64,000 nt of DNA from a virus (lineage: Duplodnaviria > Caudoviricetes): the IMG/VR virus record IMGVR_UViG_3300032295_003128, positions 1 to 64,000 of that record. One strand, given 5' to 3'. Positions within the stretch are counted from its first letter, which is position 1. Each line of letters begins with the position of its first letter. Under the pieces are notes generated by a model. That model ran no database searches and was not told the origin of the DNA. It saw nothing but the letters and a program-made list of their open reading frames with translations. The position numbers and the translations under genes were made by a program. Positions 5,612-58,487 of this stretch are shown in pieces.

Positions 5612-6073
5612 ATGAGAAAGATGTCTGTTGAATGTGCAATGGAAATCTGGAAGGCCGGCGGCGGCGTTGCCGCCAGCGAATGGCAGGAGAAGTCTGGCTA
5701 TTCACGCGGCGGCCCGATCTACAAACGGCGACCGACTCCCGTCTTCTGTCGGGAGTTGACTCGGGAGGGCCTCGAACTCGAAGCGATCAACCCGCACGAG
5801 GACATTGCTTCCTACTATCGGAGCATTCTTGCCTACGTCACTGGTCGTCATCCCAAAGCGCGGAAGATCATCGTGGTCAACGATCCGGTCGGGCTGCGGA
5901 CCGCGTGTATGGATGCGGAAATCCCAGAGCCAAGGTTCGACACCTTGATGGGCCGATGGGATATCGGCAACACGTTGGCGAGTCAGCGCGTATGGCAAGC
6001 CCAAGCCAAGCCGCGCTATGCGTGGCAAGGCCTCGTGAAAAGGCTTGATCCTGCTCCGGCTCTGGGTTCATAA
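5612..6073 (+). CDS. hypothetical protein (153 aa)
   Basis: Strong SD AAGGAGGT. Confidence 0.75.
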   Translation: MRKMSVECAMEIWKAGGGVAASEWQEKSGYSRGGPIYKRRPTPVFCRELTREGLELEAINPHEDIASYYRSILAYVTGRHPKARKIIVVNDPVGLRTACMDAEIPEPRFDTLMGRWDIGNTLASQRVWQAQAKPRYAWQGLVKRLDPAPALGS

Positions 6074-6205
6074 CCTGCCAACCGGAATCAGAACCTTCTG
6101 ATTCTGGGAGGAACACTGCTCCCTCTCGTTCTGGGAGGGAGCAGCATCCTCCCCGCAGCTCTAGCTGCGACGGAGATCATAACCTAACTACCAAAGGAGG
6201 TATAC

Positions 6206-7882
6206 ATGCCCATCAAATACTACACCCCCACGCTCGACAAAGCGGTGAAGGATCACCACATCGACTTCCGAGTGCGGGGCCGACTGCCGGAGACTTACGA
6301 CCTGCAATGGGTCGATAAGCGTCACCCGTGCAAGACCGGCTGCTGGCGTTTCGACCACGCGTCGGGTCGCCACGAGATCCGTTTGTCCGTGATCTGCTAC
6401 GACACCCTGACCAAGGGCGGAGCAGCACACGGCAAGCGGGTCGCCGTGCCTGATCTGTATCGCAACGTCTACGAACACGAGGCAGCGCACTCGCTCTACA
6501 CGACCAAAGACCTCGAAGGTCTCGGCAAGATTCTTGCCGCCGAGAAAATCCCTTGGCGGCTGATGAACTTGTTCGAGGACTGCCGCATCGAGCGTAATTG
6601 GATCCTCCGCGAACGCGCCGGCAAGTCGTTTCGCTGGACTCGTTGGGAGGAGCATCCGCCCGTCTCCAAGATGAGCGCGAGCAGCTTGCTCTTCCACATG
6701 AAGACCGAAGGCCTGACCCGCAGCGGGTATCGCTTCCCTCGGTCGTTCATCATTGCCCATCGGACACACCCCAACTGGCGCAAAGTCTACGACTATTACC
6801 GCCGCATCGTCGGGTGTGGATGGACCGAAGACCTCGTGCCGATCCTCAAGGACTGGCTCAAGGACTTCCCCGCTACGGGTGACGACACCATCGAGGGCGA
6901 AGGCGGCGCTGGAACCGGCGACATGGGCGAAGCGATCGGCGAGGCCACGGGGACGCACCCCGAGGACGTCAAAGCGAAAGACCCCAAAGGCGAAGGCGCA
7001 TCGCCGGAGACCAAATCCGGAGGCGGCAAGGGGAAAGGCGGCAAGGCGCCCGGCACTCGTGCCGAGTCCACCACGTCACCGACCCACGGACGCGGCAGCG
7101 GCGGCTCCGCTTCCGAAGTCGTGCCGACCATCGACCACGAGACCGAGCGTTCGCTCCGGCTGGCGCAACTGCTGGCCCAAGCGTTCCGCAAGAACGGCAT
7201 CATCGCCAAAGGGCCAACGGCCCGTCCGTCCAAGCGGCTCAACCTGCGCGGCTTGCTGCGCGGCGACTGGTCTCGTCCGTTCGTCGGCAAGACGATCGGC
7301 AACACGAACAAGCCGCACATCTCGTTCGTCATGGATTGCTCGGGCAGCATGGGCTGTCTGACTCACCTCGATCGTTCGCGCAAGGTTGAGCTTCGCACCG
7401 ATGACTGCGGTCGAATCCTTGCTCGTGCCTTGAACGAGCTGGCTCGTCTCGGTCACATCACGGGCGTTGTCTACGGCTCATCGGATGGCGGCTGCCATTC
7501 GCGCACCGAGCTGCCCGTTCCAGACCATGTGCTGACGATGGACGCTGGCCTCGAAGCCTTCTCCGGCTCCGAGGGTATCGGCCTCACGTTGGCGCCCGGC
7601 TGCAAGCCCGGCTGCTACACGAAGAAAGGCTCCGGCTCGTTCTTCGAGGAGATCGCCGCCAAGTCTAAGATTGCCATCGTCTACACGGACGGCTGCATCA
7701 CGGACGCTCCGGTCAATCGTATGCCGCTCCGTGCGCGGGGCGTCTACACCATCGGCGCCTATGCCGGACCGGACAAGACCATCTCACTACGACACCACTT
7801 CGATTACGTCATCAGCCGTGACTCGTTGTGGGGCGTAGCCGATGCGCTCGTCCGCACCCTGAAGTCCATCCCGCGCAAGTAA
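6206..7882 (+). CDS. HExxH metallopeptidase-like + VWA domain protein (CobT/MoxR-partner-like)
   Basis: EHEAAH...NLFEDCRIE, G/S-rich linker, MIDAS DCSGS and VYTDG; SD AAGGAGGT. Confidence 0.85.
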   Translation: MPIKYYTPTLDKAVKDHHIDFRVRGRLPETYDLQWVDKRHPCKTGCWRFDHASGRHEIRLSVICYDTLTKGGAAHGKRVAVPDLYRNVYEHEAAHSLYTTKDLEGLGKILAAEKIPWRLMNLFEDCRIERNWILRERAGKSFRWTRWEEHPPVSKMSASSLLFHMKTEGLTRSGYRFPRSFIIAHRTHPNWRKVYDYYRRIVGCGWTEDLVPILKDWLKDFPATGDDTIEGEGGAGTGDMGEAIGEATGTHPEDVKAKDPKGEGASPETKSGGGKGKGGKAPGTRAESTTSPTHGRGSGGSASEVVPTIDHETERSLRLAQLLAQAFRKNGIIAKGPTARPSKRLNLRGLLRGDWSRPFVGKTIGNTNKPHISFVMDCSGSMGCLTHLDRSRKVELRTDDCGRILARALNELARLGHITGVVYGSSDGGCHSRTELPVPDHVLTMDAGLEAFSGSEGIGLTLAPGCKPGCYTKKGSGSFFEEIAAKSKIAIVYTDGCITDAPVNRMPLRARGVYTIGAYAGPDKTISLRHHFDYVISRDSLWGVADALVRTLKSIPRK

Positions 7883-8049: not shown

Positions 8050-9399
8050 ATGTCCGATAAACATTCCGATTCGATTAACATCGACAACCTCCCGTGGCCG
8101 GCCGCTCGCGCCTTGGCGAAACAGCAGCTCGGCATCAAGGGCGAGTGGGTCTCCCACTGCACCCTGCCCCGCCTCAAAGCCATGCTCAAGGGCGAGATGA
8201 CTATCGCCGACGCGCAAGCCGCTTCCCTCGCTGACCAAGCGAAGAAAGCGGGCCTCTCGCTCGGCGGCGGCATCGACGCCACTGCGCTCAAGCCGCTTGA
8301 AGCCAAGCTCACCGAGCTGGCAGGTATCATATCGTCGCTCGACGACGAGGTGACTACGGCCAAGTCCGAAGCGGCCAAGCTCGTCGGCGACTTGCACACG
8401 GAGATGTCCGATCGGCTCACCGAGTCGCACGATGCCTTCACCAAGCTGCAAGATGCCGTCACCTCGGCGCTCGCCAGCGGCGGTTCGGCTGCGGCCAAGG
8501 TCATCGCTCCGATCCTCGGGGTGCCGACGCCTTCCTCGTCTGACCCCGTGGTCATGGCGCTGGAGATGTTCTGCGCTCCAGGCCGTGCGATCAAGCCGCT
8601 GCTCGTCAAGGGCGGCCAAGGCGCGGGCAAGACCTACGCTGCGCGTCAGCACGGCATGACCGCCGGCTTTGACCGCTGCGTGGAGTTCGGTGTCCACTCC
8701 CAGACCGAGGCCGTGGACTTCCTCGGTATGATGATGCCGAGCGGCGAGTGGCTCGACGGCCCGTTGACCGAGGCGTTCCGCGCTTCGGCTCTGGGACAGC
8801 TCGTCTTGCTTATCATTGACGAGATCTATCGTGGTCAGAACGGCGCTCGCACCCCGCTCCTGACCGCCACGTCTCCGGCCACGCTGCCCAGCGGCGAGCG
8901 GGTCTATCGTCTCCGCACGGGTCGCGCCATCGTCGATCCAGTGACCGGCGTTCACACCTCCGAGATCATCGAGGCTCCTTGCCAGAACCTCGCCATCGTT
9001 GCCACGACCAACGTCGGGGCCGAGTTCAACGTCGATCCGGGCTGCCCCGCCGAGCGCGAGCGGTTCATCCCTATCCACGTCGAGGTTGACGAGGCCAAGA
9101 TCCGCGCTGTCTGCGGCGCTATCGCCACGGCCAAGGGCTACAGCTCCTCCGTGGTTGACCGCACACTCGCCTTCTACCGCGAGTGCAACGTCCTCAAGAC
9201 GGACGGGTTCATCGAACTCTGCCCGTCCACCCGCATCCTCTCCGAGGCGATCCAATACGCCGACAGCGAGGCCAACGTGAAGTCGATGCTGCGCGAACTC
9301 GGATTGCACATCTGGGTCGGCACCACCATCGAAGGCAAGCCCGAGGAAGAGCAAGTCAAGCGCGTCACCACCGCACTCGACAAGGCCTTCGGGAAATAA
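8050..9399 (+). CDS. MoxR/CbbQ-type AAA+ ATPase with N-terminal coiled-coil extension
   Basis: Walker A GGQGAGKT, W.DGPL, Walker B LIIDE, sensor I ATTN, Arg finger ERF. Confidence 0.9.
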   Translation: MSDKHSDSINIDNLPWPAARALAKQQLGIKGEWVSHCTLPRLKAMLKGEMTIADAQAASLADQAKKAGLSLGGGIDATALKPLEAKLTELAGIISSLDDEVTTAKSEAAKLVGDLHTEMSDRLTESHDAFTKLQDAVTSALASGGSAAAKVIAPILGVPTPSSSDPVVMALEMFCAPGRAIKPLLVKGGQGAGKTYAARQHGMTAGFDRCVEFGVHSQTEAVDFLGMMMPSGEWLDGPLTEAFRASALGQLVLLIIDEIYRGQNGARTPLLTATSPATLPSGERVYRLRTGRAIVDPVTGVHTSEIIEAPCQNLAIVATTNVGAEFNVDPGCPAERERFIPIHVEVDEAKIRAVCGAIATAKGYSSSVVDRTLAFYRECNVLKTDGFIELCPSTRILSEAIQYADSEANVKSMLRELGLHIWVGTTIEGKPEEEQVKRVTTALDKAFGK

Positions 9400-9462
9400 C
9401 CTGACCACCTAACGCGTAACCGCCCTTTCCAATCTGGGAGGGGGCGGCCGCACCAAAACACC

Positions 9463-15398: not shown

Positions 15399-16073
15399 TT
15401 ATCCTTCTTGGGACGCTGGCGTTTCTGGCTGCTGTTGCGAGCTACCAGAAGTATTGAGCCAGCACCAAGAGGGAAAGCGGTAACCTTCGCTGGCTTTCTC
15501 GGCCACGTCTTGGGGCAGCCACACCTTTGCCCTGAGGTTGCAGCCGCACACGCCGCAGTTGGCAAGGCTGGCGTCCCGCACTGTCTGGCGCGCTCCGATG
15601 ATCGAGAAGATCGTCGAGGCCAGATTGGTGCAGACGAAGCATCCACTCATCCCCACGTTCAGGGGACAGGACGCGCAGGTGATTGCTCGTCGATTGGCGG
15701 TCTCTTCGTCTACCAATCCTTTCTCTCCCAGAGCGGCGCGGACCGCCCCCAGAAAGCGCATGACGTCGTCGATGTTGAATTCCTTTTTTAACCCGACATC
15801 GCTGAGCAATTCACTTGCCTCAGAGTCGCGAGCTGCGAGTTCCTCTTCGGACAGAAGCGGCTGGCATCGTCCCAGATCTTGCTTGGCGCAGGTGAAGTTC
15901 TCGATGTCCTGGCGCGGGTTGCCGGCGGGCAAATTGTTCGCCGCCCGGTGATCACTCACCTGCCCCACGACGAGGTCGAGGATGTTGTTCTGGAACCGGC
16001 ACTCGGTCTCCGGCTGGATGTATTGCCACCCCCCTCTGGGAAGAAGCGATGCGTCGTTCCATGCGTAGTTCAT
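15399..16073 (-). CDS. Cys-rich (zinc-binding-like) protein, last gene of the virion block
   Basis: CASCPLN, CFVC, CGVCGC and CW motifs; ATGA overlap with the giant gene. Confidence 0.8.
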   Translation of the reverse strand: MNYAWNDASLLPRGGWQYIQPETECRFQNNILDLVVGQVSDHRAANNLPAGNPRQDIENFTCAKQDLGRCQPLLSEEELAARDSEASELLSDVGLKKEFNIDDVMRFLGAVRAALGEKGLVDEETANRRAITCASCPLNVGMSGCFVCTNLASTIFSIIGARQTVRDASLANCGVCGCNLRAKVWLPQDVAEKASEGYRFPSWCWLNTSGSSQQQPETPASQEG

Positions 16074-19000
16074 TGAATTTCTCTGATTCGATCGGTCAGC
16101 CCGCGCTTTTCGGCTTCTCTCACGGCATCGGGACTCGGGACGTAGGGCGGGATTTCTCCGCTCATCACCGCTTCGGTATTGTCTTCGCCGACGCCGACGG
16201 CCCGGAGCCGGTCGCGGAAAGCGGTTTGGCTCAGTCCCAGACTGCGAGCCGAGAGATACTTACGATGGTATTTCTTCGCGATACGTTCACGGGCTTCATT
16301 CGTCAGACGGAGGGCTTCAGCCACGGCGCCCGGAGCCTGCGTTCCGTTGGACAGGAAGACTCGGTTGAAGAGAGCCGACGCGTCGCGCATCTCACGCATG
16401 TAGGCCGACCCAGCGAATCCAGCACTCTGGGACAGATCGACCTCGTTGATCCGCTGTCCGGCAACTACCGCGAGAATTTCGTTGAATGGATCATACGCCC
16501 GGCCTGACTCGGTGACTTGGCCGGTGAAAGCTTTATAGATGCGATCCGCGCTTCGAGCAGTTCCAGGGACGAACACATTCCCGACATGGATGCCGACGTT
16601 CTTGAGGATGTTTGTCGTCGAGTCCTGCGGATTGTAGATCCTCTGTCCCCGGCTGTCGGTGTTTCGAGCGACATCCATGAGAGACCCCGCCAAGAGCTGC
16701 TCACTGGCGAACGGCGATAGGGCCTCTTGAAATGCGCCTGCTGCCGCCTTGCCGAGTCCCGTGGTAATATCTTCGGCTCCGGTGACGGCTCTCCAGAACG
16801 CCCAGAGCGGCTTTTTGAGATAGTCATTCGGATCAGCAAAAGACACATCGGCAAAAGATATCTTTCCGTCTTTCCGCCCGAAGAGGAGAAGCTGGTTGTT
16901 CTTTTGCCAATCTGGGAGAAACTCGCGCAAGTCTTCTTCGTCGTCGGACGACAGGCCAGCCATCGCCATAAAAGACCCAGCTACCACGGACGGCACCGAC
17001 AGCGCAGTGGTGAAGCCTGCAACGCGGCGCCAGCCGAGTTTCACCAACTCTGGGTTGCCGGACTTGATCTCGTCGAAAGCCAGCTTCAGCGTATTGACGT
17101 TCGTGCGGACGACCTCTGTCGTAAAGGTGATGAACGGCGCGATGACAAGGCCCGGCCCCTTCTTCAACTCCTGCACCCACTCTGGGGCGAGCGAATACGT
17201 CCAGTGGATGTCACGGGCGATTTGGGCGGCTTTCTTTTTCAGATCGTCTTCGGCCATTTTAGGGAACGCTTTTCGGTAATTCTCCAGCTCGGAGAAGTAG
17301 ATGATCGCCTTGAAGATGTTGTCGCCCATGGCGTAAGTGCCTTTCGCGAAGTCCCAGGTTGCGGTGATGGGGCGAGTGAGGTGCTCGAGGAAACCTTCTG
17401 GGCCTTTCGTGGACGCGGCCCGCCCCACCGACTGCATGTCGTTGAGTAGATTTTCGACAAGATTCACCGACACCGACTCACCGAAGATGCCGAGTTGAAT
17501 CAATTCCTCGATGGCGTTTCGAGCTGCCGCCCGATCTTTGTAGTTCTTGAACACGTCTTGGATTGCCAAGCTGTGTCCTTTGCCGATCGCTTTGAGGTTG
17601 AAGTTTCCCGTCGAGAGAAGTTTCAGCCACCCCGACAAATAGTTGCGGACTTGCCCCGCTGCCGACCCGACTGTCGCCATCGCCATTGAGAGAGCCGTGC
17701 CCTTGGCTGCGATGTTGTAGACTGGGTTCGGCTTCTGGCGTGGGGGGAACATGCGGTAGAGACCTTCGACCATCTCCGAGTTGCCGTACATTCCGGCCAG
17801 CGGCGACAACCGCTCATTGCCCTCGGTCGCGATTTTGACATAGCCGACCGGGCGGTCTTCCCCATTGTCGCGCAGCCAACCCTCGGACAATCCCAGTTCG
17901 CGGAATTCGGTGAGGAACTTGTGGTTGTGGACGAGGCTGGTCAGCTTCATCACTGTTTTTCCATACGACGTTTCGGGGTCGTCGTTGACGCCCCAGAGTC
18001 GCTGGATCTCCGGCGCGATGACACCCCTTTTGGTCAAGATCGAGAGATTCTTCTGACCCGGAATCCGACCGGACAGGACTTCGAGCGACGGCGAAGATTT
18101 ATAGACCGCGAGAAAACTCTCGAGCACGTTGTCCACATTCGCTGCTGACAATCCCTTAGCCGCCTGCCGATCAGCTTCGGCGCGTCCCAGGACTTGCCCT
18201 TTGGCGGCGGCTTCTTCGATCAGGCTATCCGCGTTGTCTTTGACGAGCTGACGCCTAATGAACCGACGGGCGTCGGCCATGACTTTGGTGTTCTTGCGAA
18301 TCTGCTGCACCCACTTGTCCTTGAGATCGAAGATCGAGTAGCTGCGGTTGAGGTAAATGCCGAGGTTCTCGTCCACCGCCAGCTTCATGTCGCCGCCGAC
18401 CATGTCGGACACTTTCTCTTGAAGCACCATGAGGTGCTCGTTCATCTCCCGGACAGTCTTCTTGATCGCTCTGGGTAGGGACTTCAGGGCGGCCTGTTGC
18501 TTGACCCGGAAGGCGGCCCGATTAAGGCGGAGGTATACCATCCGCTTCTCGCTGGCGGCCTTGGGATCGGTCAGCCGGATACGAGCGATGTCGTTGAGCT
18601 GGTCTTCGGTGAACGGGTTTTCCAAGTTACCTAGAGCCGTGGTGATCGTAGCCCGATTTACCCGGACACCGGCGTTGGCCGCCTCGCGGAGCTGGCGTCC
18701 CAGAATGCGAAGCAAGTCGTCCGCTCGGCTGGCATCGGCTTTTTGATTAAACTGCGAATCGAGGAGAAGCTGGTAGCCCCGGCGATCCATGTCACGGGTC
18801 ACGGCGGTAAAAGATTTCTCGCGAACGTAGTTGCCCGGGCCAGTCGGGATGACCTCGTCCCGGAACACACCGCCGAGGGAGAAGAACGTTTGCTCGGCTG
18901 CTGGATTGTTGTAATCCCAATATACTCCCGCCGCCATCACACCTCCGGTTGCGGGTTTCACCGCGCCCTCGATGACGTCTCCATCTTCGTCACGTTTCGG

Positions 19001-22000
19001 AGACGCTGCCGCAACGAACTCCTCGCGGGTCATCGTCGCCACCGCTGCGGCAACGTCTAGGCTAGGCGCATCAGTAGCGACCGCTTTAGTGCGCGGCGCG
19101 GCTGTTTTTGCGGCGGCCTTGGCCTTCGGTTCGGCCTTGGCCTTAGTCGTCGCTTTAGCTTCCGGTTTCGGTTCAGGCTTCGGTTCAGGCGTAGGCTCAG
19201 GAGTCGTGGCCTTTTCTTTCTTGGCTTTGGATTTGGATTTTGGCTTCGGAGGCTCTGGCTCTGGGTCGGGATCTGTGTCCGCGTTAGTGTCGGTCTCTTC
19301 AGGCTTCGCTGCCGCTTCGGCTGCTGCCGCTTGTTCGGCGGCCAACGCGGCTGCTGCCGCCGCTTGTTCGGCTTCCGCTTGCTCGGCTGCCGCTTGTTCG
19401 GCGGCCAATGCCTGTTCAGCGTCCACTTGCTCGGCAACTACCAACTCGGCTTCCAGCTTTTGAATGTCTCGCTGAAGCTCGTTCCTAGGGCCGTAATTCT
19501 CGATGCTCCGCATCCCAGGCTGCGAGCCGTAGTTGAATGCGCCGAGAACGTCGTTGAGCGCCTGGAGGTCCCGCCGCTTCGACGCGAGTTCGGAGCTTAC
19601 CTCCGCGAGAGGACGGGCTTCGATTGCTGGGGCTGGGGCCGGAGCCGGAGCCGCTTGATCGGCGCGACGTTGCCCCCTCGTAAATTCAGGGAACTTAACC
19701 TGATTCGGCTCTGGGACGGGGTTCGGAATAACCATGAGCCAACGCGCTTCGGCTGCGGCCTTCGCACGGACATCCCGTTCAGCCGGCCACTCAGCGGCAA
19801 TACGATTGCGGTCTTCGGCTGTCCCGGCCAAATCACGGGCTTCGATCTGTTCCTCGATAAACTGTTGCTGGGCCACGAGAGCGGCCATCTCGTCAACCAT
19901 CCGGCTGCGGATCAACTCTGGGGCGGCGTCGCCGTCTACGCTGGCGAAGTTCAGGCGCCATGAATCACTGAAGCCTTCAGCAAGAGGCGAGTTCCGATCG
20001 ACTTGAACCCCGGTGATTAGAGTCACAACGGCGTTCCAGACGTCCTTGATCGCGTCCATGAAGTTCCGCGATGTGCCGTCGGCCTTTCCAAATCCCAGTT
20101 CCGCGAGGCGCTTTGCCACCTCGGGGTTGTGCGTAACATCGACGACGAATTCTTCGAGGCTTACGAGCGCCGCCAACGGCTGGTTCGATTCCGCTGCGGC
20201 TGCTTCCGCGAGCTGGTCGGTGATAATTTGCACATCCGCGCCGGACAGATTCTTCGGAACATCGAGGCCCCGGGACCGGGCTTCGGCGAGGATCGCTTTG
20301 CTACGGAGGGTTTCGAGGCGGGCGATTGCGCTTCGTTCGGCAGGGTTCAGTTCGACTTCGCCACTGAGCTTCGCGCTGACTGCGACGTGCGACAGTTCGT
20401 GAAGCAAGGTGTCAATGATCCCCTCTGCACGATTGGTGTGGTTTCCAGTAGAGTTTAGGTACACCGAGTATGCGCCGTTTGCGTCCACCGAAGCGCGCCC
20501 AGACCAGATTACAGAATTTGACTTAGCGATGTCCCGCGTGACTTCGTCGAGGAGCGTTTGCCGCTGTTCGGGATCGGTTTCGTCGATGGGAATTTGCCGC
20601 TTTTTGCCGTCCAGCGTGACGACGTAGTTTCCGTCTTTGACAGCCAATCGCTTCTCGACTTCTTCCAACGTAATAGGCCGAGCGGCGTAGTTGCGGCCGA
20701 ATCCTGCTATCTGCAAGCTGACGTTGTCGTTCCAGTTCAGTCGGCTGTTCAGCTTCAGGAAAGCCTGCGCCGCCGCACGCGACTTCGCGTTGACTTTCGG
20801 GTCGGCGGCGACGGTCTTGAGAAACGTGTCGATGTCCTTGAACGCGTTGGCCTTGATCAAGTCCCTCATGTTCTTCCGAGCGAGCTGCACTTGGCGCGGG
20901 GTATTGCTTCTGGCCTTCTGGGTGCGGCCCATGCCGAGAAGCAGATCCGTGCTGCTCTGGGTGATGAGCATGTCCGCGATCGGCTGCATCGTCTGGCCTA
21001 TCACGTTGCCGCCGGCCGCCAGCGTATTTTCTGAGGACTTGCCGTCCGTTTCGATGGCCGACGCGATGCGGTCAATCTCGTCGTCCGTATAACCCTTGAG
21101 GTCATCGGCCTTGAGGCCGGAGTATCCCGCGACGTAAGTCCGGGCTGCGTTCCGCGCTATCCGTCGGACGGTGCGGTTGAGAAGACGAGTTCGTGCGCGA
21201 GGTCGCTGAGTCGCGTCAGCGGGTCTTCCTGAAACGCCCCCGGGTCCGTCAGCATCAGGTCCGGCAGGGCTCCGTAGTCCCCCTTCAGCATCCGGTTCAA
21301 CATTTTGTCCCCCAAGCGACTGGCTAACTCGGGGTGATTCTCCAGAAGTACCACCGCCATCAGCCGACAAGCCACGTCCGGATACTCCGCTAGGAGTTCT
21401 GCGCGCGAGCGAGCGCGCGGCTCCGCCTTGCTTGGCCCAGTCGAGGAGTTCTCGTCGTTCAAGGAGTTTTTCTGCGGCTGGGGACGGCTGGTAACTGGCG
21501 GCGTCAATGTAGTTTTCTCGTTCTGCATAAAGTTTATTATAGCTGATTTCACTCCGAAGATAACTAAGTATTTCCTCTAGGCGCGGGTTGGTAGAGACAA
21601 CGTCTTCGACCGATCCACCTTCTTTGACCGCTTTTTCAGCCGCGTCGATCTTACGCGGTATGCGGCGTCCCTCGCCGTCCTCGTCTTGATACCAGATGCG
21701 TCCTTGCTCTGGACCGTAATCAAACGCGTCGAGTAGAATTTCTCGGTCTTCAGGGCTAAGCGCCTTGACTAGCTCCAGCTCCTCGCCCTCCAGGCGGAAG
21801 TTGACGCGTCCCAGATCGGGGCCGTCATCCTCGCTTTCCAGATCTGGCGCGTCGTCGCTTTCCAGATCTCGCATCTCGTCTTCTGGATTTTGGTAAGCCC
21901 GACCGCGTGTCGGCGCCTCATTGCTTTTGGTTTGCAGCCGTGCGTCGGCTTCTCCAGCTCCAGTCCCAGCTTTAGCCTGCAACGACTCGGTGCGGATTTT

Positions 22001-25000
22001 GTTAGCCCGTGCTGTCACTACCTGTTTCCGCGCCGCGTCCGCCGCCTTTTTAGCCGTTTCAAACGGGTCGTATTGGGCGTACGCGTCTCGTGCGATGGTT
22101 GCCAGCCGGTTGACGAACCGGTCTTCCGCCCGCTGTTGCTCTTTGGTCTGACCTTCGGGTCTGGGACGATCCGCCAGGGCTTTGACTACTGCGGTAAAAT
22201 CTTTTGTCCCCAGCGCGCTGCTCTTGGCGGCTTTGCCGCGTTCTTTACGTTGGTTTTTGTATCCGGACTCTTTCTCAATACGATCCAGAGTGGCGTTAAG
22301 TTTTTTAGCTGCTTGCTCTGCTTTCGCCGGGTCTTTGCCCGACAAGAAACGAAGTTCCGCGCCGATACGTTCTCTCGCTGTGTCGATGTCCGCCAGATCG
22401 TCTTCCGTGATCCGAAGGCCCGCGCTGTTTGCGTCGAGGCGCACCGCTTCGATAGCTTCGCGAGAAAGCCTTTGCGGGGCGGATTTCTGCATCCGGGTTT
22501 TCTGGGCTTCGGCCAGGGCGGCGACGAATTGCCGCGCCAGCCGGATTTGGTCTGCTTCGGGAAGGCTGCTCGGCCTCCGGGGGTTGTCGCGCACCGCATT
22601 GAGGAAGGCTTCGGTCGCCGAGTTGACTGCTTTTTGGCGAGCTGTCGCGGCCACCTCTTCAGCTTCGGTTCCCGTCAACCCTTGCTCGGCCCCGACTGTT
22701 TCGTAGACGGTGTCTTCGTTGGTGAACGTATCGGCCCGGAAAAGTCCCGGCAGGACGGCGTCTAGTCCACCGATCGTGATTTGCTCCCGGAGCAGTTGCA
22801 AAGGCCGGGGAAGCGCTTTGACCGCCGCTTGCATTTCTCTCGTTGATTCGGCTTCGGCACGTCGGCTTTTGAGTCGCGTTTCGTCGGAGTCTATCGAGCG
22901 CCCCAGATCCGATTGGTAGACCTTATTGAACGCGCCGAGTCCTTTTAACTCAGTGTTAAACCTCTTCGGACGATACGCTTTAGACTTGCGCTGCGCTTCC
23001 AACCGCTTCTCCTCGAAGTCGAAAGGAAGGACATCGAGCTGGCTCTGTAGTTCGGCAACCGAGCGTTCAGATTTCCTGACCTTGTCTTGGGTCTCTGGAT
23101 TGTCGATTAGGTTTAAGCGCGTCGAGTTCAACGACCGGAGACGCTGCTCTAGAGAACGGATCTCATCCGTGAAAAGCTGCAACCGAGACTTGGCGTCGCC
23201 GCGACGACCCCGGAACGAAGGCAACGATTTGGAAATTTGGCTGAGTTCTTCGCGGTATTGATCTCTCGTCGATTTCAGCTTTGCGAGCCGTTCTTCTTCG
23301 CGCTGAAGTTTAATCTGATCGTCGTAGCGCGCAGCGTCACTTTCGAGACCTCCCTGTTTTCCAGGCGTTCTAACCAACCGCCTCAAGCGATTGACGCTTG
23401 CTTCCCGCTCCTGGAGCGAGGGGGCCTGCTGGTTCAGAAGCTCGCGAAGTTTATCGCGCCGCGCCAGAAGCTTTGGCTCCCGTTTCACCGCATCGGCTTT
23501 GGTTTTCAGGCCGTCCAGCTCGGCGGACGTTTCTTCAATTTCTTTGTCGAGCTGCTCACGCTTGGCTTTAGCGTTGGCGTTTTGATCGACTAACGCATTG
23601 AAATCCGTCCGCGCCCCTTCTCGGGCAAGCATGGCTTCCCGCAAGGCCGCTTCGAGTTCTTGCTTACGCGCTGCTTCTTGGCGGTCTAGCTCGCCCATCC
23701 GATCGCGGTCGGCTTCTTGGATTCTCCACTGAGATTCCCGCCACGCTTCGTCTTTGCGCTGGTCAATCGGCGAGATCGAAAAGGCAAGCGGGTCTTGGGC
23801 CAGAACCGGCATTCCGTCCGGAGCAAACTGCCCTTCACTAGCCCGGGAGCCTTTGGTTTTGGCTGGCTTAGAGCCTTGGCTGATTTGATAAGGTGCGGAC
23901 TTGCCGTCCGTCCCATACCAATCGACGGCTGTGAACACTGGCTGCCAGACGCCACGGAAAAGTCGGTTTTCGATCCGCGCAGTCGGGTCGTTCTTGAACA
24001 TCTCGACCAGCTCCGGCGTCGCACGAACCACGTCGCCGCGATTCATGCCACGGGCGACTTCCGTTTTGACTCGGTTTTTCGCCCTTTCGTAGTTCGCCTT
24101 ATCGAGGTTGAATTGGCTGTTGGCGGCTTTGAATTCAGCGTCAGCTTGCGCCGCTTGGGTCTCATACTCCTCCCGGGCTTGCCGTTCGAGTGCGACGACC
24201 TCGTCATCTACCCGTTGACGCGCCAACGAAGGGGCGTCCGCCAGCACCGCGTCGATTTGCTTGGGAGTGCGCGGGGCCGATTGCATCACTCCGCGCTCGT
24301 CGGTGAAGAACGTTGGAACGTAAGCCTTGGCTCGTTCTTCTTCCAAGTAGCGGGCATACACCGCCTCTCGCTGCTCCGGAGACATCGGAGTCGGGCGAGG
24401 AATCTGTTTACGCACCGGACGGACGGGAGCGGCTTCCGGCGCGTCGATCATCAAAGTCAACCGCGCTTTGACGGGGCGCCCCCGATTCCAGAGAGGTCCG
24501 CCGCTTGCCGCTGCGCCTTGAGCCAAGCCCTCGGCCACCTGCCGCTGGATGCGCTGATCACCAGCCTCACTGACTTGTTTCGGGCGATCTCCCAGAGCTG
24601 CCAACCGCTGCTCCAACTCCTGCGCCTTTGCCGAGAGCGCGGACCGCTCTTCTACGCTGAGGCGTCCGGCTAAGTTTTGTTTTACGACTTCTACGACTTT
24701 TCCGGTTTGGTCTTTTACTGGACGGACTCGCGCATCGTTCGCAGCGACATCAGATTTAGAGGTCAAAGCCCCTCGGTCAGACAGCAAAAGGCGTTGGCGA
24801 ACCTCGTTCAGTTCTTTGCCGATGGCTTCTCGCTCGGCCTGAGTTTCCGGCGTTTCTTGTACAGATTGCTGTCCAAGTCCGTCTTGGGTCTCGACGACGC
24901 CCGACGGCGCTGAGGGAGCGTCGCTCCCGAAGATATACTCGACTTTGTAGGTCAGCCCCCGATCAGCACCGGTTCCATCGGTCACTGTCATCGTTGGCGG

Positions 25001-27373
25001 CAGCGCGATCGGCGCATTCGGGTCGTCTTCTGGGACAACCGAAGCACCGAAGACTTCGCTGAGTTCAGCCGGCGTATTCGCGGCGTTGAGCTTCTGGTTA
25101 AATTCTTCGGTCAACGTAGCCGGCGCTTCGTCTACGATGCGGTTGCCGACCCGGGAGAACTGACTGGGCTTCAGCTCGAAACGCTCTTTGGTGTCGGCGT
25201 CTTGGAATACGGCGTTTCCGTTTTTACGGCGGCCAATCAACTGGGCGTTACGGAGCGTTCCGGCCTCTAAGATCGAAACCTCGGTTCCAGCCGCTGCCAT
25301 CTCACCGGTCTGATCGGTGAGAACACTGCCCTGCCAATTCTTCGCGGCTTCGGCCCGTTGAGCTTCTTGTTGCTCCCGCGCCTGCCGCAGGTTGCTGACA
25401 AACGTGGCTTTTGAAACCGGCCCAATTACGTTGCGGAGCCAAGAACGATTGTCCCGAGGGACACTGGCACTAAACGGCGCAAGTCGTTTCCGAAGCGCCT
25501 CGACCGCCACCTTTTTCTGCGCGGCTTCTTCGTCGGCCAGAGTTTGGGTTGTAAGCTCTTCTTCGAGACGTGCGATCTCCGCCTCGGTGTCCCGCGCATC
25601 GGCTTCGGTGAAATTGAAAGGAACGCCGTCTGAACCAAGAATCACGAAGCCCTGATCCCCGCCCATGTAAGCGCCGTCGGCGTCGGTATCTTCTGAGCGT
25701 TCGGAGATCGCAGCCGCGCTTCCGGTTTGCGGAGCGAGCGGCTCGGTTCCTTCGACGGCCACGCCTCCGAGGTCGCCTTCTTCCCGCTGGCTCTTGAAGT
25801 ATTCGATTTTCTCAGCGAGTGCGGCTCCTTCTCTGGTCGTAGCATCAAGCGGGGCGACGCGGGCTCCACCAAGACCCACGGCCATCCCTACTCCGCCCTG
25901 AAACTCGGCCTCTGGATCGATGGCGGCCCAGCCATTCGAGGCTGGGAACGCGGCTTCGAGTCCGGCGTTGTATCGAAATTGGCGGCCGTCTAGCTCAATG
26001 GGATCTGACCAGTCTCCCAGAATCTCTTGCGGCGGCTGCGGCGCAGTGGGCGCCTCTTCAGTTTCGTCGGGATCGACTGCTAGATCGTCAAGCGCGGCTT
26101 TGGTGCGGGGAGCAATGTTCTCCAAAACCCCACCGCCACCGCCAAGCATACCGCCGATTGTGGCGCCAGCCGCTGCCGCGATCATACGCTCCCTCCCCGC
26201 CCCAGGAGCGTTCAGCCGCTCTTCGATAGTCTGGTTCGGGTCGGCCATGCCGACGGCCGCCTGTTCGAGGCCGGTCTGGAGATACTCGGTCGTGCCCTCC
26301 AAGGCCGAACCGATGGCTGCTCCTTTGGTCGCTCCAGCGGCAACGCGCCCAGGGAACTTCAAATTCAGCGGCTTGCTTTCGACGCCAAACATCTTGTTGA
26401 CGCCCGGAATCTTTGAAGCCACGAATCCCTCAAACAAAGTATCCAGCGCGGCGCCGGGGACCGATGTGGCGAGAGCCGCTGTGACTGCTTCGCTGCCACC
26501 CTCACCGGTCTCATCCCGAATCTGGCCGTAGGTCCCGCCGGAAATCTGTCCCAGATTGGCGAGGTACGCGCCCGTCATGGCGCCGTAGCGGGTTCCGCTG
26601 GAAACGGCCCCCTGAACTCCCCGCGCAGCATCATCGACAGTCCCCGCAAGTCCACGGGCGGTTCCTTCGGCGGCCTTGGCCCCCACCGAACGGGTCAGGA
26701 GGCCCTGGGTAATCTCTTCGGCGACCTTGCGCTCGGCTTCGTCGGCCACTTCTCCGGCGGCCCGACGCTTGGCGATCTGGTTGATGACCATCCGCTTGGC
26801 GAGCGATTTACCGACCGCGCCGCCGACGCCGCCTCCCAGAATCGAGGTCAAGAGCTGGGGGATCTGTTCGCCGAGGAGGCCGACGGCATAGCGGCCGGCA
26901 TCACCCAAGTCTTCGATATCTTCAAAAGGATCCTGCACCGAAGCGGCCTGCGTGGCCGCCTCTTCCATGGCCCGACGATAATTGTCGTAGCCCCAATCGG
27001 CGCCCCGCTCGATACCCAGTCCGTCGGCGGCCAACCCCAAAAAGCCGTAAGCCAGCCCTTCGAGCTGGTCCCCGCCCCGGCTCAATCCGACAGAGAACTC
27101 TTCTCCCAGAGTGCGTTCGGGGGTAAGGCGGACGCCCCCTTTCATAATATCCCGAATAAACCCCGAGCTTGCCTCCTCGGCCGTTGCCGACTGAGCGCGC
27201 CGCTGGGCCGATCGTTCGCGGAATCCAGCCGCTACCGATTCGGCCGACTCCGGCTCAGGAATTTCGACCGGCTCCGGCGTTCCGAGGCTTCCAAAGTTAG
27301 CCGCCGCCGCTCTGGGACGAGCTAAGGTCAGCGTAGAATCGTTTTCTTCCTCGAGGTCGTCGTACCAAGCCAT
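16070..27373 (-). CDS. giant internal virion / large polyvalent protein (3767 aa) with HExxH metallopeptidase-like domain and LPD38-like C-terminus
   Basis: G/A-rich hydrophobic N-terminus, long coiled coils, LLHELSH at 20387-20401, P/A/E-rich linker, C-terminal APFITF-type region; follows the other ejection genes. Confidence 0.8.
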   Translation of the reverse strand: MAWYDDLEEENDSTLTLARPRAAAANFGSLGTPEPVEIPEPESAESVAAGFRERSAQRRAQSATAEEASSGFIRDIMKGGVRLTPERTLGEEFSVGLSRGGDQLEGLAYGFLGLAADGLGIERGADWGYDNYRRAMEEAATQAASVQDPFEDIEDLGDAGRYAVGLLGEQIPQLLTSILGGGVGGAVGKSLAKRMVINQIAKRRAAGEVADEAERKVAEEITQGLLTRSVGAKAAEGTARGLAGTVDDAARGVQGAVSSGTRYGAMTGAYLANLGQISGGTYGQIRDETGEGGSEAVTAALATSVPGAALDTLFEGFVASKIPGVNKMFGVESKPLNLKFPGRVAAGATKGAAIGSALEGTTEYLQTGLEQAAVGMADPNQTIEERLNAPGAGRERMIAAAAGATIGGMLGGGGGVLENIAPRTKAALDDLAVDPDETEEAPTAPQPPQEILGDWSDPIELDGRQFRYNAGLEAAFPASNGWAAIDPEAEFQGGVGMAVGLGGARVAPLDATTREGAALAEKIEYFKSQREEGDLGGVAVEGTEPLAPQTGSAAAISERSEDTDADGAYMGGDQGFVILGSDGVPFNFTEADARDTEAEIARLEEELTTQTLADEEAAQKKVAVEALRKRLAPFSASVPRDNRSWLRNVIGPVSKATFVSNLRQAREQQEAQRAEAAKNWQGSVLTDQTGEMAAAGTEVSILEAGTLRNAQLIGRRKNGNAVFQDADTKERFELKPSQFSRVGNRIVDEAPATLTEEFNQKLNAANTPAELSEVFGASVVPEDDPNAPIALPPTMTVTDGTGADRGLTYKVEYIFGSDAPSAPSGVVETQDGLGQQSVQETPETQAEREAIGKELNEVRQRLLLSDRGALTSKSDVAANDARVRPVKDQTGKVVEVVKQNLAGRLSVEERSALSAKAQELEQRLAALGDRPKQVSEAGDQRIQRQVAEGLAQGAAASGGPLWNRGRPVKARLTLMIDAPEAAPVRPVRKQIPRPTPMSPEQREAVYARYLEEERAKAYVPTFFTDERGVMQSAPRTPKQIDAVLADAPSLARQRVDDEVVALERQAREEYETQAAQADAEFKAANSQFNLDKANYERAKNRVKTEVARGMNRGDVVRATPELVEMFKNDPTARIENRLFRGVWQPVFTAVDWYGTDGKSAPYQISQGSKPAKTKGSRASEGQFAPDGMPVLAQDPLAFSISPIDQRKDEAWRESQWRIQEADRDRMGELDRQEAARKQELEAALREAMLAREGARTDFNALVDQNANAKAKREQLDKEIEETSAELDGLKTKADAVKREPKLLARRDKLRELLNQQAPSLQEREASVNRLRRLVRTPGKQGGLESDAARYDDQIKLQREEERLAKLKSTRDQYREELSQISKSLPSFRGRRGDAKSRLQLFTDEIRSLEQRLRSLNSTRLNLIDNPETQDKVRKSERSVAELQSQLDVLPFDFEEKRLEAQRKSKAYRPKRFNTELKGLGAFNKVYQSDLGRSIDSDETRLKSRRAEAESTREMQAAVKALPRPLQLLREQITIGGLDAVLPGLFRADTFTNEDTVYETVGAEQGLTGTEAEEVAATARQKAVNSATEAFLNAVRDNPRRPSSLPEADQIRLARQFVAALAEAQKTRMQKSAPQRLSREAIEAVRLDANSAGLRITEDDLADIDTARERIGAELRFLSGKDPAKAEQAAKKLNATLDRIEKESGYKNQRKERGKAAKSSALGTKDFTAVVKALADRPRPEGQTKEQQRAEDRFVNRLATIARDAYAQYDPFETAKKAADAARKQVVTARANKIRTESLQAKAGTGAGEADARLQTKSNEAPTRGRAYQNPEDEMRDLESDDAPDLESEDDGPDLGRVNFRLEGEELELVKALSPEDREILLDAFDYGPEQGRIWYQDEDGEGRRIPRKIDAAEKAVKEGGSVEDVVSTNPRLEEILSYLRSEISYNKLYAERENYIDAASYQPSPAAEKLLERRELLDWAKQGGAARSLARRTPSGVSGRGLSADGGGTSGESPRVSQSLGGQNVEPDAEGGLRSPAGPDADGPGGVSGRPADATQRPRARTRLLNRTVRRIARNAARTYVAGYSGLKADDLKGYTDDEIDRIASAIETDGKSSENTLAAGGNVIGQTMQPIADMLITQSSTDLLLGMGRTQKARSNTPRQVQLARKNMRDLIKANAFKDIDTFLKTVAADPKVNAKSRAAAQAFLKLNSRLNWNDNVSLQIAGFGRNYAARPITLEEVEKRLAVKDGNYVVTLDGKKRQIPIDETDPEQRQTLLDEVTRDIAKSNSVIWSGRASVDANGAYSVYLNSTGNHTNRAEGIIDTLLHELSHVAVSAKLSGEVELNPAERSAIARLETLRSKAILAEARSRGLDVPKNLSGADVQIITDQLAEAAAAESNQPLAALVSLEEFVVDVTHNPEVAKRLAELGFGKADGTSRNFMDAIKDVWNAVVTLITGVQVDRNSPLAEGFSDSWRLNFASVDGDAAPELIRSRMVDEMAALVAQQQFIEEQIEARDLAGTAEDRNRIAAEWPAERDVRAKAAAEARWLMVIPNPVPEPNQVKFPEFTRGQRRADQAAPAPAPAPAIEARPLAEVSSELASKRRDLQALNDVLGAFNYGSQPGMRSIENYGPRNELQRDIQKLEAELVVAEQVDAEQALAAEQAAAEQAEAEQAAAAAALAAEQAAAAEAAAKPEETDTNADTDPDPEPEPPKPKSKSKAKKEKATTPEPTPEPKPEPKPEAKATTKAKAEPKAKAAAKTAAPRTKAVATDAPSLDVAAAVATMTREEFVAAASPKRDEDGDVIEGAVKPATGGVMAAGVYWDYNNPAAEQTFFSLGGVFRDEVIPTGPGNYVREKSFTAVTRDMDRRGYQLLLDSQFNQKADASRADDLLRILGRQLREAANAGVRVNRATITTALGNLENPFTEDQLNDIARIRLTDPKAASEKRMVYLRLNRAAFRVKQQAALKSLPRAIKKTVREMNEHLMVLQEKVSDMVGGDMKLAVDENLGIYLNRSYSIFDLKDKWVQQIRKNTKVMADARRFIRRQLVKDNADSLIEEAAAKGQVLGRAEADRQAAKGLSAANVDNVLESFLAVYKSSPSLEVLSGRIPGQKNLSILTKRGVIAPEIQRLWGVNDDPETSYGKTVMKLTSLVHNHKFLTEFRELGLSEGWLRDNGEDRPVGYVKIATEGNERLSPLAGMYGNSEMVEGLYRMFPPRQKPNPVYNIAAKGTALSMAMATVGSAAGQVRNYLSGWLKLLSTGNFNLKAIGKGHSLAIQDVFKNYKDRAAARNAIEELIQLGIFGESVSVNLVENLLNDMQSVGRAASTKGPEGFLEHLTRPITATWDFAKGTYAMGDNIFKAIIYFSELENYRKAFPKMAEDDLKKKAAQIARDIHWTYSLAPEWVQELKKGPGLVIAPFITFTTEVVRTNVNTLKLAFDEIKSGNPELVKLGWRRVAGFTTALSVPSVVAGSFMAMAGLSSDDEEDLREFLPDWQKNNQLLLFGRKDGKISFADVSFADPNDYLKKPLWAFWRAVTGAEDITTGLGKAAAGAFQEALSPFASEQLLAGSLMDVARNTDSRGQRIYNPQDSTTNILKNVGIHVGNVFVPGTARSADRIYKAFTGQVTESGRAYDPFNEILAVVAGQRINEVDLSQSAGFAGSAYMREMRDASALFNRVFLSNGTQAPGAVAEALRLTNEARERIAKKYHRKYLSARSLGLSQTAFRDRLRAVGVGEDNTEAVMSGEIPPYVPSPDAVREAEKRGLTDRIREIQ
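21157..21528 (-). CDS. putative overprinted gene (123 aa) in an alternative frame of the giant gene
   Basis: TATAAT at 21541-21536 followed 7 nt later by ATG; protein-like helical sequence while the host frame is G/R/S low-complexity. Confidence 0.5.
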   Translation of the reverse strand: MQNEKTTLTPPVTSRPQPQKNSLNDENSSTGPSKAEPRARSRAELLAEYPDVACRLMAVVLLENHPELASRLGDKMLNRMLKGDYGALPDLMLTDPGAFQEDPLTRLSDLAHELVFSTAPSDG

Positions 27374-27378
27374 TGCTA

Positions 27379-27407
27379 AAAGTAGCGGTTGTCAGGTTAT
27401 GATGCAA
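27379..27407 (-). promoter_or_regulatory. sigma70-like promoter for the giant gene with a family C box in its spacer
   Basis: TTGCAT-17 nt-TACTTT, then 5 nt to the ATG. Confidence 0.45.
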
Positions 27408-31340: not shown

Positions 31341-31359
31341 GGGTTAGCAGGTTATTATA

Positions 31360-41492: not shown

Positions 41493-41521
41493 AAATTATA
41501 CGCAGCCGGAAAGCGTGTCAA
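41493..41521 (-). promoter_or_regulatory. sigma70-like promoter upstream of the capsid gene
   Basis: TTGACA (41521-41516) with TATAAT at a 15-nt spacer or TAATTT at a 17-nt spacer. Confidence 0.55.
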
Positions 41522-47838: not shown

Positions 47839-47859
47839 ACATTTGCGGTGTGCAGGTTA

Positions 47860-48102
47860 TTACCTATTCATCAGGTGTCGGAAGCTGTCAAATACCCAAG
47901 CGGACATTGCCGCTATGGCGGCGGCGACGCCGTAAATGGAGGACTTTGCCGTCTCTAGGTGCTTCAACCTTTCGTCGTGCTTATCGAAGACTTTGCCGAA
48001 CCTCTCTTGGTTGTCCAAAATGAGGTCCACCTTAGTCTCCAGCCGCACAAGCCGCTGAGCGTCCAAGAAGTGGTCTGATTCTTTGCCGGCCATTTCATTC
48101 AT
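47860..48102 (-). CDS. coiled-coil + C-terminal TM protein (XhlA/holin-like)
   Basis: RLVRLETKVD...HDERLKHLE followed by a hydrophobic helix. Confidence 0.65.
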   Translation of the reverse strand: MNEMAGKESDHFLDAQRLVRLETKVDLILDNQERFGKVFDKHDERLKHLETAKSSIYGVAAAIAAMSAWVFDSFRHLMNR

Positions 48103-54126: not shown

Positions 54127-54140
54127 GGGTGGTCAGGTTA

Positions 54141-54389
54141 TTATAGCTTAGGGCGAAGAAATGTCACCCGGCGGACTCCGCTGGAGCGAAAAACCCGGAA
54201 CGATTGACGTTCGACCGAAGGGTTGCGGAGCATTCGCTGATACAGCCCCGAGCTTGCGAAGTCGCGATGGCTTTTCCATCCCTCTCGGCGGAGCGCCTCT
54301 TCATTGACGCCTTCAGATTCAGCCTCTATCGCCGCCCACGCCGAGTCGTAAAGATCAGACGCGGAGGGCTTTGCTTTCTTCTGGATCAT
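54141..54389 (-). CDS. hypothetical protein (82 aa)
   Basis: Overlaps the end of the phosphoesterase gene. Confidence 0.5.
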   Translation of the reverse strand: MIQKKAKPSASDLYDSAWAAIEAESEGVNEEALRREGWKSHRDFASSGLYQRMLRNPSVERQSFRVFRSSGVRRVTFLRPKL

Positions 54390-55176: not shown

Positions 55177-55200
55177 GAGGTTAGTCGGTTATGATAAACG

Positions 55201-57100: not shown

Positions 57101-57230
57101 CCATTTTCAAATTCGTAAGTCACTCGACTTACTCTGTTAATCGGAAAGTTATGCAACATTTGTTGTGAACCTTTGTGCAAGGTTATGAATAATTTTGAAC
57201 GACTTGGCACAAACTTACGTCAAAAAACAC

Positions 57231-58487
57231 ATGACCGAATCAACCCTTATTGAGACCGAACCCGGCGTTCACGAACTCCAACTGAACGGATCGCGGGTCA
57301 AAATTCGCGAAACCAAAAACGGCAACTACAAGTTTTTCCGGCTCGACTGGAAAGTCGGTAGCCGCGCATTCCGCCGCGCCTTTTCCTCCTCCGAAAAAGC
57401 CATCGACGAGGCCGAGCGCATTGTACGGGATCTTGCCCGGGCCGAAGGGGAAAAAACAACCGTGCGTAGCGAGGATATCGTCTACTACCGCGAATGCGCC
57501 CGAAAGCTTGGCGGCGTTCCCCTGCACGAAGCCGTCGAGTTCTACTGCAAGTTCCATCGGGTCGGGGCTCCCCGCAAAACCATCGCCGATCTCGCCCAAG
57601 AACTCGAAGTCGCCACCCGCGCCCGCGAGGCATCCCGGCGGCATCTCGAAACAATCATTCATCTCAACAAGGTATGGACAAAATGGACGGGCGCAATGAC
57701 GCCCTCCGAAATTACCCCCGCGCTCATCGAGCGAAAGTTCTCCGAAAGCGACTACTCGGCCCACACGAAAAAGAATTTGCTACGGGGTTACCGGGCCCTG
57801 GAGCTGTTCGCGATCCGCCAAAAATATCTGCCGCGTGAATTCGAGAGCGTAGCCGAGCGGGTGACCATACCCAAAACGCGCAACGCCACGCCAGCCGTGT
57901 TCACTCCGGAAGATCTGATGCGGCTCTTCGTTGCCGCGCAGCCGAAACATTTGTCCTACATCGCCATGATGGCGTTTGCTGGCGCCCGCCGGGCGGAGTT
58001 CGAGCGCATGACCCGCGACCACATTTCGCTCGATGACAAAGTCGCCATCATCAATGCGGAAATTGCCAAGAAGGGTTCCCGGCGCGTTTTGGAATTACCG
58101 GAAAACCTTTGCGAGTGGCTGCGCGTGGCCGAACTTCCCGAGAAGGGTCTCCTCACGTCACGCAAAAGCATCGAGCGGCTTTCGTCCAATAAAGCAGCGC
58201 TGAAAGAAGTGGGCCTGGACGCCTCAAAGTGGGAGCAGAACGTGCTCCGCCACTCCTTTTGCTCCTACCACTTGGCCTTACACCGCAACGCGGCCACCAC
58301 TTCAGAGCAGGCCGGCAACTCACCTCAAATGCTCCGCGAGCACTACAAATCACTCGTGACCCCCGCCGCCGCCAAAGAATGGTTTGACATAACCCCCGCC
58401 AAGGTGATGCAATTCGCAACTGAGCGTCACCTTGCAGGGTTAATAAAATGGACTTGCCACAAGAAAGGAGCTGTGACAATTTCGTAA
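57231..58487 (+). CDS. int: tyrosine recombinase / integrase
   Basis: FAGARRAE (R), AKK (K), NVLRHSFCSY, AGNS, HY (catalytic Tyr). Confidence 0.9.
   Translation: MTESTLIETEPGVHELQLNGSRVKIRETKNGNYKFFRLDWKVGSRAFRRAFSSSEKAIDEAERIVRDLARAEGEKTTVRSEDIVYYRECARKLGGVPLHEAVEFYCKFHRVGAPRKTIADLAQELEVATRAREASRRHLETIIHLNKVWTKWTGAMTPSEITPALIERKFSESDYSAHTKKNLLRGYRALELFAIRQKYLPREFESVAERVTIPKTRNATPAVFTPEDLMRLFVAAQPKHLSYIAMMAFAGARRAEFERMTRDHISLDDKVAIINAEIAKKGSRRVLELPENLCEWLRVAELPEKGLLTSRKSIERLSSNKAALKEVGLDASKWEQNVLRHSFCSYHLALHRNAATTSEQAGNSPQMLREHYKSLVTPAAAKEWFDITPAKVMQFATERHLAGLIKWTCHKKGAVTIS

Follow-up and report, generated by a model that had tools for sequence, protein, structure and literature searches.

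Does an open reading frame (ORF) of 123 codons that lies inside the gene for a giant virion protein of a phage encode a protein of its own and, if so, which of the two overlapping frames is the constrained one, how is the inner one expressed and which of them came first? Among double-stranded DNA phages, spanins provide the main known cases of embedded genes, an arrangement that standard gene callers do not permit. The ORF in question is found in the window analysed here, a stretch of 64,000 nucleotides (nt) that comprises positions 1 to 64,000 of IMG/VR record IMGVR_UViG_3300032295_003128; the source record is a complete virus genome of 72,115 bases with direct terminal repeats, and its genes include those for a terminase, tail fibres, an endolysin and an integrase. 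As judged by comparison of related sequences, ORF 21528-21157 is a genuine, selected protein-coding gene that belongs to the class of embedded phage genes and represents a new orphan family. The whole reading proposed here, to which we give a probability of about 0.75, is that of a real embedded gene whose selected domain lies over a predicted disordered spacer between two halves of the giant protein, whose frame is probably the older of the two, whose translation would begin internally and whose product would have a docking role.

On the minus strand, TATAAT (21541-21536) is followed by AAACTTT (7 nt) and by an ATG at 21528-21526, from which the frame stays open to a TAG at 21159-21157; the program-made ORF list also gives an upstream extension to a GTG at 21552, for a product of 131 amino acids (aa). 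The ORF is contained wholly within the giant ORF (16070-27373), on the same strand and in the +1 frame, and across it the giant frame is a stretch rich in G, R, S, P, A and D. An earlier note on this DNA had described the hexamer, the 7-nt spacing, the ATG at 21528 and the 123-codon ORF in another frame of the same strand, had called the giant protein a G/R/S/P low-complexity linker at this place and had put the ORF just upstream of the region leading to an HExxH domain. All of these elements are present as described: the translation agrees with a linker, which AlphaFold predicts to be disordered, and the motif lies approximately 250 codons downstream. Between about 21400 and 21250 the GC fractions of the three giant-frame codon positions are approximately.78/.68/.36, so that those of the +1 frame are approximately.68/.36/.80, which approaches the gene's usual.67/.46/.66. 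This switch in composition is the one strong signal available from a single genome. The other single-genome features, the hexamer and the open frame, are not beyond chance. TATAAT occurs ten times in the window, where 5.7 occurrences are expected, and three of 100 shuffles reach ten; four of the 111 +1-frame open stretches in the giant gene are at least as long as this one, and the chance of its being open is 0.07 by codon shuffling and 0.16 by synonymous resampling.

Comparison with related phages is more informative. Alignment-based scans yielded 24 loci, in which the giant proteins are mostly 41-48% identical to that of the window and in two distant cases 24-25% identical; a scan of IMG/VR with the single protein gave no relatives, which emerged only with alignment queries, and tblastn of the ORF and of a piece of the giant protein against INPHARED phages gave no match. 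A hidden Markov model (HMM) of the embedded domain, seeded with the window peptide and two metagenomic proteins (P0003 and P0004), was searched against 25 sources, namely the 24 loci and the window, and matched 21 of them, in every case in the +1 frame within the giant ORF. The sources without a match are L006, which ends short of the region, the distant L008 and L009 (24-25% identical) and L020. In L020, the most distant full-length relative, positions 6400-7150 encode a K/A/E-rich linker, and the +1 frame is full of stops. All 20 related loci that hold the segment keep the +1 ORF uninterrupted from ATG to stop. As several loci are one contig present twice, these reduce to 13 unique ORFs of 102-137 codons, none of them interrupted, in which the ATG stands 16-50 codons ahead of the domain. 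Furthermore, a profile search found 19 additional small proteins (83-154 aa) with matching starts and ends among gene-caller predictions, mostly on short contigs. One of them (P0038) has 123 aa, is 89% identical and begins with M-Q-N, as do the window's embedded protein and a fusion of the domain to leucine-rich repeats (LRRs), P0048. From these shared beginnings, the ATG at 21528 is the probable start codon.

The main evidence for selection comes from tests that distinguish codon positions. The giant gene was scanned in 40-codon windows of a back-translated alignment of nine giant genes, 538 of the 1160 windows being scored. In 13 of these 538, divergence at main-frame third positions was below whichever of the first- and second-position values was larger, and these 13 are contiguous, cover giant residues ~1999-2089, which correspond to the helical domain of the small protein, and have no counterpart elsewhere in the scored gene. 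The scan has its minimum at -0.15, against a mean of +0.168 and a standard deviation of 0.081. In the core of the domain the divergences d1/d2/d3 are about.49/.42/.35, with flanking third positions at.55-.73, and immediately ahead of the domain the aligned main-frame third positions are the most variable. Changes were also counted in five independent close pairs: 64 were silent in the embedded frame only (at 215.7 sites), 31 in the giant frame only (at 279.3 sites) and 65 in neither frame (at 429.7 sites). The resulting dN/dS-like ratios are 0.51 for the embedded frame (NN/NS; bootstrap 95% confidence interval 0.35-0.71) and 1.36 for the giant frame (NN/SN; 0.94-2.05), and ten overlapping pairs give 0.42 and 1.39, respectively. 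Over the domain, selection, as read from these substitution patterns, acts on the embedded frame, and in the giant frame no constraint on the amino acids can be detected apart from the need to remain open, as would suit a passive linker.

Codon usage points in the same direction. In nine of nine lineages the embedded frame resembles in-frame windows of the gene (r.45-.57; codon adaptation index, CAI,.64-.75), and the giant frame over the segment is like the off-frame background (r.05-.23; CAI.39-.58). In 54 of 55 pairs the amino-acid identity of the embedded frame is above that obtained when these bases are read in the giant frame. In addition, embedded-frame identity correlates with that of the giant protein farther downstream (r.85); because it tracks that protein, the embedded gene is taken to be inherited together with its host gene.

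Several points weigh against this reading. The openness of the frame is as unremarkable in the relatives as in the window (P 0.04-0.71 by codon shuffle), and each giant gene holds 2-6 +1 ORFs of equal length. In a control with the 73 off-frame ORFs of the giant gene that have 70 or more codons, 52 matched relatives at E<1e-3, so that off-frame similarity, as a by-product of main-frame conservation, is no evidence when taken alone. As many as 622 of the 1160 scan windows were too gappy to be scored, and the alignment crosses a gap-rich region in about nine uncultured lineages. One relative with 41% identity, L020, has an intact giant gene that contains neither the ORF nor the G/R/S/P linker, and the embedded gene is therefore dispensable in that lineage. 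The exact start site shifts by a few codons among lineages, and both the start codon and the age order of the two frames are things that we infer from sequence; with regard to the latter, codon usage can converge, as old overprinted genes may acquire that of the genome.

Given the control and the unremarkable openness, the case rests on the position-specific tests, and it is these that bear on the possibility that there is no second gene, with the open frame and its similarity being by-products of GC-richness in the gene and of conservation, whether of the giant frame or of an RNA or DNA element. Such an explanation would account for a frame whose openness alone is not significant and for the similarity seen also in 52 of 73 off-frame ORFs. 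However, it predicts that third positions should be the most variable, whereas at this place, and at no other in the gene, they are the least variable. Per site, changes that leave the embedded protein unaltered are roughly twice as common as replacements, the codon usage suits the embedded frame, the predicted fold is confident, and Rfam recognizes no RNA family in 20000-23000. We therefore regard the absence of a second gene as very improbable.

A compensated double frameshift or a sequencing error, by which the helical peptide would really be an in-frame part of the giant protein, might be suspected from the composition switch and from a GC-repeat at about 21400. The peptide is, however, not a part of the relatives' giant proteins: BLASTP against 25 proteins, mostly giant relatives, gave clear matches only to P0003 and P0004 and a weak one to P0020 (E 0.004). 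The relatives' giant proteins instead align to the G/R/S/P reading through similar linkers, which indicates that the giant frame is truly read as a linker, and the two-frame arrangement recurs in the 20 related loci (13 unique ORFs). This explanation was rejected on these three grounds, and its probability is close to negligible.

The reading of a genuine embedded gene is also supported by the properties of the predicted product. AlphaFold models calculated from 15 sequences have six helices with predicted local distance difference test scores (pLDDT) of 80-94 over residues 41-110, and 55 residues of the embedded protein exceed 90; the giant-frame reading of the same bases has pLDDT 28-36 and no secondary structure. 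The product is accordingly modelled as a small acidic soluble protein, in which a six-helix domain of ~75 aa follows a disordered N-terminal tail and is itself followed by a short second tail. The small proteins of the window and its relatives are acidic (isoelectric point, pI, 4.05-6.06; net charge -2 to -21) and hydrophilic. Cysteine is absent from 11 of the 13 relatives, and the sole cysteine of the window protein is inside the helical domain. The coordinates of the embedded gene, its parts and its surroundings are collected in Table 1.

Table 1. Coordinates of the embedded gene, its candidate expression signals and the surrounding giant gene.
Feature	Position	Strand	Basis
Gene of 123 codons embedded in the +1 frame (ATG to TAG), for a small acidic protein of pI 4.95	21157..21528	-	ORF list, relatives, selection tests
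Probable start codon ATG (giant-frame codons TAT-G)	21526..21528	-	ATGs of relatives; shared M-Q-N
N-terminal tail, predicted disordered; giant frame keeps its usual constraint here	21406..21525	-	pLDDT 42-54 for residues 1-40; third-position variability
Six-helix domain, residues 42-117; embedded frame the selected one	21178..21405	-	AlphaFold, HMM in 21 of 25 sources, scan, change counts
Giant-frame reading: disordered G/R/S/P linker, giant residues ~1982-2065	21179..21430	-	Translation, AlphaFold, change counts
AT-rich patch before ATG, GC 0.30; likely internal initiation region	21529..21568	-	Ranking of 40-nt windows
TATAAT hexamer (giant-frame Tyr-Asn codons); candidate -10 box, not conserved	21536..21541	-	Relatives, sigma-70 scan, counts
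Gene of the giant virion protein (3767 aa), in which the small gene is embedded	16070..27373	-	ORF list; PHROG match; HMMER relatives
HExxH motif (HELSH) of the giant protein	20387..20401	-	About 250 codons downstream of the embedded gene

Searches for a known family or fold yielded no assignment. Pfam recognizes no family in the window ORF or in its 13 relatives, PHROGs and NCBIfam contain no match to the small protein, and the best PDB hit by sequence profile has E 0.065. At the level of structure, the best ESM Atlas score of 0.80 is at noise level, the best Foldseek matches have E 3.3 (PDB) and E 0.72 (BFVD), and a VIA-align comparison with 48,161 chains gave a best Z of 4.2 (root-mean-square deviation 4.0, 76 residues aligned), in which no chain stood out and from which novelty of the fold is not implied. 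The +1 peptide does match two proteins, over 85 and 64 aa at 79% and 75% identity, respectively, and in both of them the domain is the N terminus of a BspA-type LRR_5 protein. These two, P0003 and P0004, carry PF13306, and the window ORF has no LRR_5 repeats. In the fusions the domain forms a conserved N-terminal module and the LRR_5 part is more variable; no locus of an LRR fusion was found among the viral contigs or genome contigs searched. Because the gene is inherited jointly with the giant gene and its domain is used, in close relatives, at the N terminus of BspA-type LRR proteins, the small protein might dock on the giant protein or on the virion as a partner or adaptor, a role that we put forward only tentatively.

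The question of how the small protein would be expressed is less settled than that of its existence. In the relatives the ORF and an ATG are kept and the TATAAT is missing; the hexamer has a counterpart at the same spacing in L002 alone (TACAAT), the other lineages having nothing there. The 40 nt before the ATG are a more constant feature: in the window they belong to the lowest 0.2% in GC of the gene's 40-nt windows, and in nine of 11 loci they are among the lowest 0.1-3.7% of their own giant gene. Motifs similar to AGGAG or AAGGA occur 8-10 nt ahead of the ATG in some lineages. As the AT-richness is conserved and most genes of this phage seem to start likewise, we favour, by a modest lean, translation that would start at the ATG within this patch, without a Shine-Dalgarno sequence, on the mRNA of the giant gene. 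Expression from an internal promoter is ranked second and appears distinctly less probable.

A particular form of the latter was proposed in the earlier note, in which the ORF would be transcribed separately, from its own -10 box and without a leader, possibly in the lysogen, and its product would be an inhibitor or immunity partner of the HExxH peptidase domain of the ejected giant protein. The perfect TATAAT 7 nt ahead of the ATG is consistent with this, as are the TATAAT hexamers 13 nt before the ATG of two other genes of this phage, one of which shares 11 nt (AGCTATAATAA) with this site, the integrase, and the HExxH motif conserved about 250 codons downstream. However, the hexamer is not conserved beyond the TACAAT of one other lineage and is not rare in the window, and a sigma-70 scan called neither a promoter nor a -35 element at the site, where the -35 agreement by eye is 3/6. 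A leader motif that recurs in this phage (ATAACC...) precedes the embedded ATG in none of 11 loci, and nothing connects the small protein to the peptidase domain. The proposed -10 box and leaderless start are thus not supported by conservation, and this form of expression, together with the immunity role, is improbable.

The third route, a programmed +1 frameshift from the giant frame, would produce a truncated giant protein of ~1980 aa ending in the helical domain. The geometry is compatible with it (same strand, +1 frame), and the conserved part begins only 16-50 codons past the ATG, after a tail that is not conserved in sequence. It is nevertheless a distant third, since the ATG is always present and no conserved shift site was seen by eye. 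In all 13 unique ORFs the ATG lies near the 5' end of the open stretch, neither a stop in the giant frame nor a known context for a +1 shift is present, and no conserved slippery motif was seen by eye in what is an indel-rich, poorly aligned stretch, in which no systematic search was made. We consider frameshifting even less probable than the leaderless gene, and return to internal initiation as the preferred route.

Several observations concern gene starts elsewhere in this phage. Most of 17 gene starts (16073 to 56976, minus strand) have AT-rich leaders and no Shine-Dalgarno sequence, approximately three having GGAG- or AGGAG-like motifs, which hints at a host with Shine-Dalgarno-independent initiation. 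The leader motif mentioned above, (T)ATAACCTG[AC][CT][AC]ACC, stands 5-25 nt before ATG starts, twice in the form TATAATAACCTG..., at 27393-27400(-), 31348-31355(-), 47853-47860(-), 54134-54141(-), about 55189-55196(-), 6070-6077(+) and 9396-9403(+). A 19-mer of it has two sites at three mismatches or fewer, where 0.01 are expected, and ATAAC-type leaders, often after GTTGCGT or GTTGCAT, precede the giant genes of L002, L011, L012, L013 and L017. The motif is a candidate phage-specific promoter or leader. Separately, at about 41495-41521(-), an intergenic TTGACA is followed after 15 nt by TATAAT, which are near-consensus sigma-70 hexamers with a short spacer.

The embedded gene was described in the earlier note as overprinted. 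That a real gene is embedded here is upheld; that the small frame is the newcomer is not, and codon usage, fold and selection point to the reverse. A novel overlapping frame is expected to be further from the codon usage of the genome than the ancestral frame, and de novo frames tend to be disordered, according to passages of PMC8227390. Here the small ORF is the closer of the two (r.45-.57 versus.05-.23 in nine of nine lineages), and the giant frame is the disordered one; for these two reasons the small frame looks ancestral. It is probably both the dominant and the older frame, the giant linker riding on the small gene. In the sampled loci both frames of the segment share one distribution, and because both are missing in L020 the segment would have been either gained as a unit or lost there. 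The segment probably entered the giant ORF either by insertion into a linker that tolerated it or through a read-through fusion that spanned the small gene. A possible, more speculative picture is that the giant protein was stitched across an older small gene, so that the spacer would be the overprint and the junction a recombination-tolerant seam, to which LRR modules may be added, splitting the giant gene; the small protein could then be a docking adaptor that rides with the ejected giant protein or loads cargo onto it.

The surrounding gene itself belongs to a recognizable family. The C-terminal residues 3000-3744 of the giant protein match phrog_22602, 'virion structural protein' (E 4e-37), and HMMER found 23 relatives among 1.84 billion representatives, many of 3100-4250 aa; against PDB sequences there was no match. 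The giant virion proteins of nine of nine lineages (the window, L002, L004, L005, L013, L014, L015, L017 and L018; 3100-3900 aa) contain no cysteine whatever. Both histidines and the glutamate of the HExxH motif are invariant in 12 of 12 aligned sequences, and the region may be a putative peptidase domain; no Pfam family and no PDB sequence match was found for it. An integrase is encoded at 57195-58487(+) (phrog_1, E 3e-20), and because of it lysogeny is possible, such that the phage may be temperate despite the direct terminal repeats of the record. Two further predictions touch on the integrity of the giant gene. P0010 (261 aa, on contigs up to 1763 nt) is a relative of the giant protein with 77% identity that begins exactly at the end of the embedded ORF and turns hydrophobic and membrane-like after ~140 aa; a split giant gene beside an LRR fusion could explain it, as could a frameshift or a chimeric contig. 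P0005 was considered as a separate C-terminal gene and rejected: it was called from an internal start within an L002-like giant protein, as its cluster contains the 3705-aa P0049, and it is thus no evidence of a split giant gene.

If the reading of an embedded gene is right, a whole family of uncultured phages of ~70 kb encodes, within the largest of its structural genes, a further protein that is under strong constraint and lacks an annotation. The locus would be a clear case in which the annotated host frame is the passive one, with a linker of the giant protein written over a folded small protein, and it bears on the assembly of giant phage proteins from parts and on the origin of overlaps. 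It also adds an orphan protein family with a confident fold model, the start codon of which could be removed without altering the giant protein.

Among known systems, the closest phage likeness is to lambda Rz/Rz1, in which a complete small gene is likewise enclosed by a larger phage gene of the same strand and read in its +1 frame (sections of PMC6139136). Gene callers miss such a gene, and the same sections discuss stop loss, with read-through across the gene that follows, as a possible origin. The differences are considerable. Rz1 is a proline-rich lipoprotein, whereas the window product is an acidic helical protein that has no lipoprotein signal and no N-terminal cysteine, its N terminus being polar and predicted disordered; the lambda host gene is a lysis gene, whereas that of the window encodes a giant virion protein, and in the window it is the embedded frame that is ordered and constrained and the host frame that is disordered. 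With regard to the domain, the BspA-type LRR_5 (PF13306) proteins P0003, P0004 and P0048, which are encoded on metagenome contigs, have N-terminal stretches of 64-85 aa that are 75-79% identical to the embedded one, but the window ORF ends right after the helical domain.

The overprinted de novo viral genes described by Rancurel, Pavesi and Willis & Masel, as summarised in part of PMC8227390, are alike in having an internal same-strand +1 overlap with one disordered product; in the window, however, the frame that looks de novo is the giant linker and not the small ORF. The locus also resembles the hepatitis B virus polymerase, in which a disordered spacer joins two functional parts and lies over the envelope gene preS/S in the other frame, and for which passages of PMC8227390 report the proposal of a short gene that at first lay between two genes, which later merged into one. 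That overlap belongs to an animal virus and to a reverse-transcribing polymerase, is far longer, and has two products that are experimentally known; the age order proposed for the window's frames is deduced from codon usage and from one relative that does not carry the segment.

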